This document shows, in pieces, positions 1 through 59,059 of a stretch of 64,000 bases of DNA. The stretch's first letter is position 1. Each line of letters starts with the position of its first letter. The stretch comes from Escherichia phage JoYop. The translations under genes and the position numbers were made by a program. The stretch lies in sequence record OR769032.1; one strand, 5' to 3'. The notes below the pieces were generated by a model. The model did no database searches and had not been told where the DNA came from. It saw only the letters and a list, made by a program, of their open reading frames with translations.

Positions 1-2314
<2,314 letters not shown>

Positions 2315-13939: not shown

Positions 13940-15358
13940 TTATGGATAGGTATAGATGATACCAGTTTCTAAAGCAGTTTTATGAATGATGTATCCATTA
14001 CGCGATTCTTGAACATCAACTTCTGGATAATCTTTCATCATCTTCTGGAGAGTGTAACGATGCAGGTAGTATTTACTATCTGGGTCTTCAGTTTTCCAAT
14101 CTTTACCTTCTTCGGTCATTTTTTGGATTTCATCCATAACCCACCAACCGCACCAGATGTAAGCTGAAGTACGATGTGGAAGAGGATGAACATAAGGTAG
14201 TTCACCTTCTGGTTCCGGAGCAACTTTATCAGTTACCTGAACTTGACCTTCTGCTGTAACAGTTTTGCTATCATAATCAGTGGCGGTAACAGTTGCAGTA
14301 ACTTCAATAGTTTGACTTCCAATAGATGAGGTGTCAACTGTATACACATTAGTCGATTCTTCTACAGGAGAAGAATCTTTCTTCCATGAATAAGTAATTT
14401 GCGCTTCTTCTGGAGCATCAGTCACATTAGCAGTAAATGTAGCCGAAGCATCTTGTTGAACGTTAATAGAAGGAGGAGTCAATGTAACCTGTGGATTCAT
14501 TGTCTTCTTATTAACTGTTAATGACACTTCATTAGAAGTAACTTCCTTTTCATTGTAATTTTCAGCAGTTACTTGGGCTACGCATTTAATTCTTTTTACT
14601 CCACTTGTAGTTGGAGTATAGCTAAATGTAGAGTTAGTTTCTCCACCAACCTGTGAATCATCTACATACCACTGATACGTAGCAGATGCTCCATCAGGTT
14701 GAGAAGCTAAGGCAGCAGTAAATTGAACTGGGGTTCCAATTACTCCAGCTGAAGGACTAGCAGGAGTTACTGCCAAAGTAGTTGTCTGTGTCTTTTTATT
14801 AACAGTCAGTGACACTTCATTAGAAGTAACTTCTTTTGCATCATAATCTGTCGCGGTTACTTGAGCTACACACTTAATTGTTTTAACTCCGCTTGTGTCA
14901 GGAGTGTAATTGAATGTAGCGCTAGTCGCTTCGCTCACAGGAGAACCGTCAACGTGCCATTGATACGTAGCAGATGCGCCTGATGGCTGCGAAGCCAAAG
15001 CAGCAGTAAATTCAACAGCTGTTCCAATCACTCCAGCCGCAGGACTAGCAGGAGTTACGGCTAAGGTAGTCGTCTGAGTTTTGTTTTTGACTGTGATAGT
15101 TGTTGTTGCTTCAGCCGTTTCCGGGCCTCCTTCAGAAAGTGTATTTGTTGCAACAACTTTAATTGTTTTTGTTCCAGCAGGTCCTTTTAACACATAATCA
15201 AAAGTTTCTGCCGATCCTACTTGAGGAGCATCGTCTACACTCCAAGCATAGGTAATAGTTCCACCTCCAGTTTCACCACTGGGTGTAGCAGTAAACTGCT
15301 TGGTTTCATCAATAACCCCTGTCGGTGTTTTAGGAGTTATATCAACTGTAAAAGCCAT
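13940..15358 (-). CDS. hoc: Hoc outer capsid decoration protein, 472 aa with tandemly duplicated Ig-like domain
   Basis: N-terminus MAFTVDITPKTPTG and C-terminal capsid-binding region resemble T4 Hoc; two consecutive 96-aa units each starting KKTQTTTLAVTPASP and ending EVTSNEVSLTVN. Confidence 0.85.
   Translation of the reverse strand: MAFTVDITPKTPTGVIDETKQFTATPSGETGGGTITYAWSVDDAPQVGSAETFDYVLKGPAGTKTIKVVATNTLSEGGPETAEATTTITVKNKTQTTTLAVTPASPAAGVIGTAVEFTAALASQPSGASATYQWHVDGSPVSEATSATFNYTPDTSGVKTIKCVAQVTATDYDAKEVTSNEVSLTVNKKTQTTTLAVTPASPSAGVIGTPVQFTAALASQPDGASATYQWYVDDSQVGGETNSTFSYTPTTSGVKRIKCVAQVTAENYNEKEVTSNEVSLTVNKKTMNPQVTLTPPSINVQQDASATFTANVTDAPEEAQITYSWKKDSSPVEESTNVYTVDTSSIGSQTIEVTATVTATDYDSKTVTAEGQVQVTDKVAPEPEGELPYVHPLPHRTSAYIWCGWWVMDEIQKMTEEGKDWKTEDPDSKYYLHRYTLQKMMKDYPEVDVQESRNGYIIHKTALETGIIYTYP
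14510..15085 (-). repeat. In-frame tandem repeat of period 288 bp (2 units) inside hoc
   Basis: tgacacttcattagaagtaacttc recurs at 14522 and 14810; units are diverged at nucleotide level; boundaries approximate. Confidence 0.75.
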
Positions 15359-51732: not shown

Positions 51733-51761
51733 ATAGTACCATGGAAGAACAGGGGTGTAAA
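51733..51761 (-). promoter_or_regulatory. Early promoter: -35 GTTTACA, 17 bp, -10 TACTAT
   Basis: rc of 51756-51761 is TTTACA; rc of 51733-51738 is TACTAT. Confidence 0.5.
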
Positions 51762-54087: not shown

Positions 54088-55082
54088 TCAAAATTCATTA
54101 ATGCTATTAGTTAATTTAGAAAGACCCGCTTTTACAAAATATGAATAAATTTTGCCACGCGGTGGTAATTTATATGAATTATAGTAATTCACAATGTTTG
54201 AAGCAATATTATCAGGAATATAATCAAAATCAATTAGAACTAGATTTTCTTTATAACGATTATATTCAGATTCTGTGAGAAGCACCTTAGCTTGTTCACG
54301 GTCATTAGCAATAGCTTCAACGATTGAAGTTTTCATTGAAGGGGTTCGTTCACCTTCAACTCTTGTAAACCAAAAGTCAGATCGTACTTTAACTGAAGCA
54401 ACGTTATCCTTTTTGTCACCTTTAAGGATTTTAGTCATACAGTCAATTTCAGCAGAACCGCTTTTAATTTTAACCCATTTCTTGTGCATCGGTGACCATT
54501 GCTTAACATTTGGGTATTTATGAAGTTGAGTAAAGTCACCATCAGATGAAATGATTAAAATCTTATGTCCTTCTAAAGAGAACTTTTTAACCAAAACAGC
54601 AATATGGTCATCTGCTTCATACTTATCAATATCCATAACGATGTATGGCATATAAGCTTTCAATTCATCTATAACTTTATGGCTGGATTCAAAATAACCT
54701 TCCCAGTCCCAAGTAGGATGTATGGCATATAAGCTTTCAATTCATCTATAACTTTATGGCTGGATTCAAAATAACCTTCCCAGTCCCAAGTAGATTCTTC
54801 TCGTGCTTTTCCGCGGTTTTTCTTGTAATAATAGGCGAAATCACGACGCCAATATCCCGATTTCGCGTTATCGATACACAGTACGATTTTAGTGTATCCA
54901 AGAGTTTTTGCTTTTTTGACATTAAACTTAATTGAGTTCAATATCAAATGACGAACCATTGATAAATTAATTTTTTCTTTATCTGGGAAGTTTACTAAAG
55001 CAGTTGAAAGTGCGATTTGACTAAAGTCAATTAAGCAGATTCCTTCTTTGTAATCTTCATCCAGCATCATTTCTAAATCCAT
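54088..55082 (-). pseudogene. rnh: RNase H (5'-3' exonuclease / flap endonuclease) disrupted by a 77-bp tandem duplication
   Basis: N-terminus MDLEMMLDEDYKEGICLIDF; reading frame shifts after ...ELKAYMPYI; two ORFs (54669..55097 and 54088..54663) together cover the protein; removing one repeat copy restores a 305-codon ORF. Confidence 0.8.
54640..54793. repeat. Perfect direct tandem duplication, 2 x 77 bp
   Basis: 54640-54716 identical to 54717-54793 (gatgtatggcatataagctttcaattcatctataactttatggctggattcaaaataaccttcccagtcccaagtag). Confidence 0.95.
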
Positions 55083-55144
55083 ATGAACCTCGTTCAATTA
55101 GTGAGATTTCTATTATATACCATCCAAATCTTAAAGTAAACAAG

Positions 55145-58100: not shown

Positions 58101-59059
58101 GGGGTAACCAATTTGGCGGCGGTAGTGATACAACACGTTCGACAGTGTTTGAAGTTGGCGATGAAACATCTCATCACTTTTATTCTCAACGTAATAAAGA
58201 CGGTAATATAGCGTTTAGTATTAATGGTACTGTAATGCCAATAAACATTAATGCTTCCGGTTTGATGAATGTGAATGGTGTTGCAACATTCGGTCGTTCA
58301 GTTACAGCCAATGGTGAATTCATTAGCAAGTCTGCAAATGCTTTCAGAGCAATTAGTGGTGATTATGGATTCTTTATTCGCAATGATGCTGCTAATACCT
58401 ATTTTATGCTCACTGCATCAGGTGATCAGACTGGCGGATTTAATGGATTACGTCCTTTGGCTATTAATAATGCATCTGGCCAAGTAACGATTGGTGAAGG
58501 CTTAATCATTGCCAAAGGTGCTACTATAAATTCAGGTGGTTTGACTGTTAACTCGAGAATTCGTTCTCAGGGTAATAAAACATCTGATTTATATACCCGT
58601 GCGCCAACATCTGATACTATAGGATTCTGGTCAATCGATATTAACGATTCAGCCACTTATAACCAGTTCCCGGGTTATTTTAAAATGGTTGAAAAAACTA
58701 ATGAAGTGACTGGACTTCCATACTTAGAACGTGGTGAAGAAGTTAAATCTCCTGGTACATTGACTCAGTTTGGTAACACACTTGATTCGCTTTACCAAGA
58801 TTGGATTACTTATCCAACGACTCCAGAAGCACGTACCACTCGCTGGACGCGTACATGGCAGAAAACCAAAAACTCTTGGTCGAGTTTTGTTCAGGTATTT
58901 GACGGAGGTAACCCTCCTCAGCCGTCTGATATCGGTGCTTTACCATCTGATAATGCTACAATGGGGAATCTTACTATTCGTGATTTCTTACGAATTGGTA
59001 ATGTTCGCATTGTTCCTGACCCAGTGAATAAAACGGTTAAATTTGAATGGGTTGAATAA
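55187..59059 (+). CDS. 34: Long tail fibre proximal subunit gp34 (1290 aa)
   Basis: Size about 1289 aa as in T4 gp34; repetitive beta-rich fibre sequence; synteny 34-35-36-37. Confidence 0.92.
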   Translation: MAEIKRKFRAEDGLDAGGDKIINVALADRTVGTDGVNVDYLIQENTVQQYDPTRGYLKDFVIIYDNRFWAAINDIPKPAGAFNSGRWRALRTDANWITVSSGSYQLKSGEAISVNTAAGNDITFTLPSSPIDGDTIVLQDIGGKPGVNQVLIAASVQSIVNFRGEQVRSVLMTHPKSQLVLIFSNRLWQMYVADYSREAVIVTPANTYQAQSNDFIVRRFTSAAPINIKLPRFANHGDIINFVDLDKLNPLYHTIVTTYDETTSIQEDGTHSIEGRTSIDGFLMFDDNEKLWRLFDGDSKARLRIITTNSNIRPNEEVMVFGANNGTTQTIELQLPTNISVGDTVKISMNYMRKGQTVKIKAAGEDKIASSVQLLQFPKRSEYPPEAEWVTVQELVFNGETNYVPVLELAYIEDSDGKYWVVQQNVPTVERVDSLNDSTRARLGVIALATQAQANVDLENSPQKELAITPETLANRTATETRRGIARIATTAQVNQNTTFSFADDIIITPKKLNERTATETRRGVAEIATQQETNAGTDDTTIITPKKLQARQGSESLSGIVTFVSTAGATPASSRELNGTNVYNKNTNNLVVSPKALDQYKATPTQQGAVILAVESEVIAGKSQEGWANAVVTPETLHKKTSTDGRIGLIEIATQSEVNTGTDYTRAVTPKTLNDRIATESLSGIAEIATQVEFDAGVDDTRISTPLKIKTRFNSTDRTSVVALSGLVESGTLWDHYTLNILEANETQRGTLRVATQVEAAAGKLDNVLITPKKLLGTKSTESQEGVIKVATQSETVTGTSANTAVSPKNLKWIVQSEPTWAATTAVRGFVKTSSGSITFVGNDTVGSTQSLELYEKNSYAVSPYELNRVLANYLPLKAKAADANLLDGLDSSQFIRRDIAQTVNGSLTLTQQTNLSAPLVSSSTATFGGSVSANSTLTISNTGTMTPRIVFEKGPASGANPAQSMSIRVWGNQFGGGSDTTRSTVFEVGDETSHHFYSQRNKDGNIAFSINGTVMPININASGLMNVNGVATFGRSVTANGEFISKSANAFRAISGDYGFFIRNDAANTYFMLTASGDQTGGFNGLRPLAINNASGQVTIGEGLIIAKGATINSGGLTVNSRIRSQGNKTSDLYTRAPTSDTIGFWSIDINDSATYNQFPGYFKMVEKTNEVTGLPYLERGEEVKSPGTLTQFGNTLDSLYQDWITYPTTPEARTTRWTRTWQKTKNSWSSFVQVFDGGNPPQPSDIGALPSDNATMGNLTIRDFLRIGNVRIVPDPVNKTVKFEWVE

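Follow-up and report, generated by a model that had tools for sequence, protein, structure and literature searches.

The 77-bp tandem duplication within rnh in the Escherichia phage JoYop record OR769032 is very probably an assembly artefact

In the deposited genome of Escherichia phage JoYop, the minus-strand gene of a T4-type RNase H (rnh) is interrupted by a 77-bp unit that is present in two copies. The question raised by this locus is whether the phage really carries a broken rnh gene, or whether one of the copies came into being when the genome was assembled and closed. The window, that is, the whole stretch of DNA analysed here (64,000 nucleotides), is the first 64 kb of the JoYop record OR769032, which has 169,193 bp with the repeat included; it belongs to the genus Tequatrovirus and is about 96% identical to T4-like phages.

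The repeat and the interrupted rnh frame

First of all, direct string comparison of the two abutting copies (Table 1) gave 0 mismatches in 77 positions, and TRF reported at 54640-54793 a period of 77, 2.0 copies, 100% matches and a score of 308, so that both methods agree with the sequence-only reading, in which the copies had been called identical. In the string comparison, copy 1 is preceded by C where the unit ends in G, and copy 2 is followed by A where the unit starts with G. Neither end of the repeat can therefore be lengthened, which fixes its size at exactly 77 bp and the border microhomology at 0 bp. It is effectively impossible that such an identity over 77 bp is due to chance, and the 64-kb window contains no other exact direct repeat of at least 30 bp. 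Short homology at the duplication borders is usual in slipped-strand duplication, though not obligatory for every mechanism, and it is absent here (0 bp). The novel junction, at which ...CCCAAGTAG is followed directly by GATGTATGG..., is located at 54716/54717, and the junction 24-mer is CAGTCCCAAGTAGGATGTATGGCA. The corresponding single-copy arrangement is composed of the left flank ATCCATAAC, the 77-nt unit and the right flank ATTCTTCTC, 95 nt in all.

Table 1. Coordinates of the repeat, the rnh fragments and the other genes of the JoYop window discussed in the text
Feature	Position	Strand	Remarks
Copy 1 of the 77-bp unit, GATGTATGGC...CCCAAGTAG	54640..54716	.	Identical to copy 2
Copy 2 of the 77-bp unit	54717..54793	.	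Identical to copy 1
rnh 5′ fragment, 137 aa (residues 1-122 + 15-codon tail)	54669..55082	-	ORF 54669..55097, ATG 55082
rnh 3′ fragment, WPJ67580.1 'RNaseH', 187 aa, starts MPYIV...	54088..54651	-	Exact match, GenBank annotation
Mechanical ORF of the rnh 3′ fragment	54088..54663	-	Extends to TTG at 54663
Small terminase gene terS (gp16), 164 aa	1..495	+	ATG = window base 1
Large terminase ORF	479..2311		Follows terS
Hoc-like ORF, 472 aa	13940..15358	-	ORF intact
Tandem repeat in the Hoc-like ORF	14501..15076		Period 288 bp
MobE-like homing endonuclease, 248 aa	44744..45490		Between nrdA and the next ORF
NrdA, 754 aa	45490..47754	-	Gene uninterrupted
Thymidylate synthase, 286 aa	48312..49172	-	Gene uninterrupted

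The 77-bp unit corresponds to nt 290-366 of the rnh CDS (codons 97-122). As 77 cannot be divided by 3, the rnh frame appears broken: it is left after I122 (...ELKAYMPYI), continues through 15 out-of-frame codons (LLGTGKVILNPAIKL) and then meets a stop, and the deposited sequence holds no single uninterrupted rnh frame. The ORF analysis thus reproduced the point of the break, the out-of-frame tail and the separate downstream ORF with the rest of RNase H, as they had been read from the letters beforehand. It had also been claimed that removing one copy restores a 305-codon gene, and this was confirmed by computation: with one copy deleted, a 305-codon rnh ORF is obtained, whose product is identical to T4 RNase H (PDB 1TFR) at 305/305 amino acids and matches both Pfam domains, PF02739 and PF09293. 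The 187-aa 3′ fragment matches PF09293 (RNaseH_C) and the tail of PF02739, and the 5′ fragment alone is recognised by no Pfam family.

The alignment with T4 rnh, which had been proposed as a check, was carried out with the rnh of the T4T record. The repaired CDS shows 28 nt differences, and all 28 are synonymous; 11 lie upstream of the unit, 16 downstream of it and the remaining one within. Because this is so on both sides of the unit, strong purifying selection must have acted on both halves of the gene until now. Moreover, the break after residue 122 falls within the nuclease domain (PF02739) and puts D19 and D71 apart from D132, D155, D157, D197 and D200 (positions checked), which together we take to be the catalytic acidic residues of T4 RNase H; catalytic roles have reportedly been assigned to the acidic residues of this enzyme. 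That is to say, the rnh allele with the break, if real, would be a null.

Repeat length, assembler and circularisation

JoYop was sequenced on Illumina NextSeq (2x151, 1,741x coverage), and its reads were assembled by SPAdes v3.13.0 with default settings (PMC10927641). The length of the repeat, 77, is the largest default k of SPAdes for reads of about 150 nt. The default-k rule is the same in SPAdes 3.x, v3.13.0 included, as in v4.0.0. For the latter, the default k values are 21, 33, 55 and 77 for 150-bp reads, and the maximum is 55 for 125-bp reads (PMC12222747). When the template is circular, each end of the SPAdes contig carries a k-long repeat, and repeats of this size have been reported from several kinds of material. 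Among 751,567 DTR contigs, CheckV found spikes at 55, 77 and 99 bp, which were attributed to k-length assembler repeats (PMC8116208). In one SPAdes assembly with k = 21, 33, 55 and 77, the contig began and ended with the same 77 bp, and one end was trimmed before the sequence was rotated (PMC8767329). In addition, 77-bp end overlaps have been described in SPAdes plasmid scaffolds (PMC5671560), and another one in a 23-kb circular plasmid scaffold (bioRxiv 10.1101/2022.04.05.487141). Internal repeats are also on record: in Shovill/SPAdes short-read-only assemblies of przondoviruses, repeats of about 79 bp occurred which were unsupported by read depth and which Sanger sequencing showed to be artefacts in the majority of the phages concerned (PMC10438801).

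The JoYop repeat resembles the k-mer terminal overlap of SPAdes in being exact, equal to the largest k, arbitrary in position and free of microhomology, and in lying in a genome that assembles as a circle. It differs from the usual overlap in that the latter has its copies at the contig ends, where CheckV reads them as DTR, whereas the copies of JoYop abut internally. Since the JoYop record has been rotated to terS, its copies meet inside the sequence and give the appearance of a frameshifting tandem duplication. With the przondovirus repeats it shares the short exact repeat inside a phage assembly; however, these lie near or in the DTR region of T7-like phages and their link to k is unstated (PMC10438801), while JoYop is a headful-packaging T4-like phage and k = 77 is explicit.

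The rotation can be read from the record itself. Window base 1, which we infer to be record base 1, is the first base of the terS ATG, and the large terminase ORF follows. The gene numbering also fits a start at terS, with rIIB/rIIA as cm3_109/110 and cm3_074 at 51 kb. The start on the terS ATG, together with the fitting gene numbering, indicates that a circular assembly was re-opened there. A workflow in which circularly permuted phage genomes are started at the small terminase gene has been published (PMC5923482), and the record of the sibling phage Carena likewise begins exactly on a CDS.

Taken together, these properties lead to the preferred explanation, namely that the 77-bp duplication is very probably an artefact of the assembly and circularisation of OR769032 and no biological feature. 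T4-type genomes are circularly permuted and terminally redundant, and for this reason the JoYop reads should assemble into a closed circle. SPAdes would print this circle as a linear contig opened inside rnh, with identical first and last 77 bases. The ends would then have been joined without trimming of the 77-bp overlap and the circle re-opened at the terS ATG, by which the abutting copies would be placed about 54.7 kb into the record; subsequently, the annotation pipeline would call the 3′ part only (187 aa). What is found in OR769032 is a repeat of length k whose copies are identical and abutting, in a record re-opened away from the contig ends, and the circular assembly of the template rests on its T4-like identity and on the established permutation of such genomes. 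The zero microhomology at the borders is likewise what is expected of an arbitrary contig break.

The proteins of the window match JoYop WPJ67580.1 to WPJ67583.1 exactly. The accessions WPJ67580 (RNaseH, 187 aa) and WPJ67581 (gp34) are consecutive, and the 137-aa 5′ product was not found in the protein collection or the contig index; it follows that the rnh 5′ fragment was apparently left unannotated. As GenBank annotates the 187-aa truncated product, the duplication belongs to the deposited record and was not produced by the cutting of the window. An artefact of window cutting, with wrapped record ends, was considered separately and rejected, since the window begins at the record start and GenBank has the truncated protein. 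With regard to the annotation in general, the announcement gives the total of JoYop genes as 246 in its abstract and as 276 in its text (PMC10927641).

Relatives, contig collections and an independent assembly of the reads

The best 40 of 498 related records with at least 80% query cover span 1124 bp, i.e., 1201-77 bp, and they do so in two pieces. A 76-bp query centred on the junction gave two-piece matches only among the phage records listed, and the junction 37-mer or 24-mer had 0 matches in the viral contigs of IMG/VR, the metagenome contigs of JGI and the genome contigs of GTDB. In all 11 related loci compared, the same flanks enclose one copy of the unit, which departs from that of JoYop by 1-3 substitutions. 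Furthermore, the 10 contigs of other samples that carry an identical gp32 all have an intact rnh, of 305 aa in nine of them and of 301 aa in one. Judged by these comparisons, the duplication is private to the JoYop record among the related records and collections examined.

Two matters of labelling were met with among the related records. In KR269718.1 / NC_031047.1 (Escherichia phage HY03), the label 'putative terminase DNA packaging enzyme large subunit' has been given, probably in error, to the sequence that is homologous to rnh. PV654520.1 and OR584013.1 both bear the name 'Pseudomonas phage', with P. aeruginosa and P. coronafaciens as hosts, and over 24 kb of structural genes they share about 95.7% identity with JoYop; this suggests contamination by a T4-like coliphage or a wrong host entry.

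An independent assembly of the JoYop reads is available in the form of the Logan k=31 contigs of run SRR27213192, which were taken from the contig index. The contig SRR27213192_29 extends in the window as far as 51,753, and SRR27213192_31 begins at 58,768; in the parts compared, 10,716 bp and 5,233 bp are in exact agreement with the window. When the k=31 graph was simulated with the duplication, the left unitig ended at 54669 and the right one began at 54764, while with a single copy the graph was branch-free across 50-60 kb. A contig ending at 54669 predicts an RNase H product of 193 aa cut by the contig edge, and the contig index holds no such product for SRR27213192. As a positive control, the 96-aa cut product of gp34 retrieves SRR27213192_31, which shows that cut products of this run are indexed. 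An exact look-up of gp34 in the contig index gave no match, and the complete genes around the JoYop rnh are common to hundreds of other phages. The independent assembly of the JoYop reads indirectly points to the absence of a branch at the repeat border. The 193-aa product would be hidden if a contig break with another cause fell within the 582-bp 3′ part of rnh, but the chance of this is slight, roughly 5%.

The 193-aa product was found in one contig only, L016 (logan:SRR35876954_2830), which comes from another sample. It represents a different T4-like phage (17/582 nt different), and its edge is at the nucleotide equivalent to window 54669; since this edge is at a wobble position, its coincidence with 54669 was judged to be due to chance. 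L016 also carries, between gp59 and the gene that follows, a gene of 210 aa that is lacking in JoYop.

As for the Logan breaks at 51,753 and 58,768, the window contains no repeat of at least 20 bp that would explain them. They may go back to heterogeneity, to a sequencing effect at a G-run or to a repeat in another part of the genome. In the unrelated E. coli assembly MGG7387855.1 (a 585-bp contig), an identical 96-aa edge-cut FRD3 product occurs, and this same cut means that the branch point at 51,753 is reproducible.

Competing explanations and the state of the record

The first alternative is a genuine, very recent 77-bp duplication in the JoYop stock, that is, a natural RNase H-null allele of the 'das' type whose agreement with k is coincidental, and it is considered unlikely. 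Such a duplication would have arisen without border microhomology and been caught before its reversion, with the host DNA polymerase I replacing the 5′ nuclease. T4 rnh nulls are viable, the gene being reportedly dispensable in polA+ hosts, and 'das' is among the names given for rnh in the T4T record. The duplication does stand in the deposited record, where GenBank annotates the truncated 187-aa product, and the break is well suited to a clean null, as it separates the presumed catalytic residues inside PF02739. SPAdes is in principle able to traverse a genuine 77-bp loop once. The announcement states that SPAdes and Ray 'gave the same contig', which, if literal for every base, argues for a genuine repeat (PMC10927641). 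Finally, exact repeats of more than 25 bp, and with them the 77-bp scar, are absent from the sibling Carena (OR769031), which was published in the same paper and went through the same pipeline; the artefact would lead one to expect the same scar there, and its absence means that the overlap was not left untrimmed by the authors in every case.

On the other hand, a real null requires the duplication length to coincide with the largest k of the assembler used, and it has 0 bp of border microhomology where slipped-strand duplications normally use some. The event must also be extremely recent, because the copies are identical and 0/28 of the differences from T4 are non-synonymous, and a 77-bp repeat in a recombination-proficient T4-type phage would be expected to revert readily. 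Loss of rnh lowers the burst size, so that the allele would have to be stable in spite of a fitness cost. In addition, the k=31 assembly of the JoYop reads indirectly indicates no break at the repeat border, and the duplication occurs in none of the related records examined. The deposited JoYop RNase H is like that of the T4 rnh null/'das' mutants in being without five of the seven residues presumed to be catalytic; however, those laboratory alleles are genuine and experimentally verified, whereas the evidence for JoYop indicates a wild-type gene.

The sequence-only reading had named a real null or split allele and an assembly artefact without choosing between them. The value of k (77), the rotation to terS and the Logan contigs speak strongly for the artefact, and the real null is unlikely. 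Its description of a frameshifted gene and an 'evolutionarily very recent' duplication holds for the deposited sequence, but probably not for the phage. The Carena record, the 'same contig' statement and the Logan breaks keep the artefact below certainty, yet none of them contradicts it.

The second alternative, which is very improbable, is that overlapping sequences were merged by hand, either the SPAdes and Ray contigs or partial contigs in Geneious. Two SPAdes contigs that are neighbours in the k=77 graph would share 77 bp, and such a merge would leave an exact abutting repeat at the join, i.e., the same end result; both assemblers and Geneious are named in the announcement (PMC10927641). 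However, one contig per phage was obtained from each assembler (PMC10927641), and at a depth of 1,741x, a circular genome of the T4 type should come out closed, as a single contig. A merge by hand is a variant of the same class of artefact, and it would not change the verdict.

The last alternative, a functional split gene read by a 77-nt ribosome bypass of the T4 gene 60 type or yielding a nuclease active as two fragments, was rejected on sequence grounds and has practically no probability. In its favour, T4 is the classic case of translational bypassing, and the downstream ORF starts within the repeat, so that the two products overlap by about 26 residues. Against it, the would-be take-off site has no stop and the frame continues for 15 codons, the extra 77 nt are present in no relative examined, so that the mechanism is not conserved, and the break cuts the nuclease domain.

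If the preferred explanation of an untrimmed overlap is followed, the true JoYop genome probably has 169,116 bp and encodes, without interruption, the same 305-aa RNase H as T4, and OR769032, with its 169,193 bp, is probably 77 bp too long. In its present state, the record annotates RNase H as a truncated protein of 187 aa and leaves the 5′ third of rnh unannotated, and comparative or pseudogene surveys of Tequatrovirus would wrongly count JoYop as rnh-defective. The biological importance is small, and the value of the observation lies in data quality and database correction. It also provides a general screen: when a phage or plasmid record has been opened at a gene of choice and contains an exact tandem repeat with a unit of 55, 77, 99 or 127 bp, the repeat should be presumed to be an untrimmed assembler overlap until the reads say otherwise.

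The JoYop genome contains a further tandem direct repeat within a CDS, namely in the Hoc-like ORF (Table 1), with the motif KKTQTTTLAVTPASP.AGVIGT.... Its period of 288 bp (96 codons) preserves the reading frame, identity between the copies is 79%, and the ORF has no interruption. Though likewise a tandem repeat in a coding sequence, it contrasts with the rnh repeat in being old, diverged and in frame, whereas the latter shows zero divergence, is out of frame and has the size of k. The Hoc-like repeat is a genuine old domain duplication, and the JoYop protein appears to have one more Ig-like domain than T4 Hoc, which we take to be 376 aa long.

Some further genes of the window deserve mention. 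The JoYop thymidylate synthase has no companion in its 90%-identity cluster, out of 5.8 billion clusters in all, and the same is true of NrdA, though the latter is present on 3 contigs; both genes are uninterrupted. The MobE-like homing endonuclease encoded next to nrdA has 243 aa in most relatives, as against the 248 aa of JoYop.
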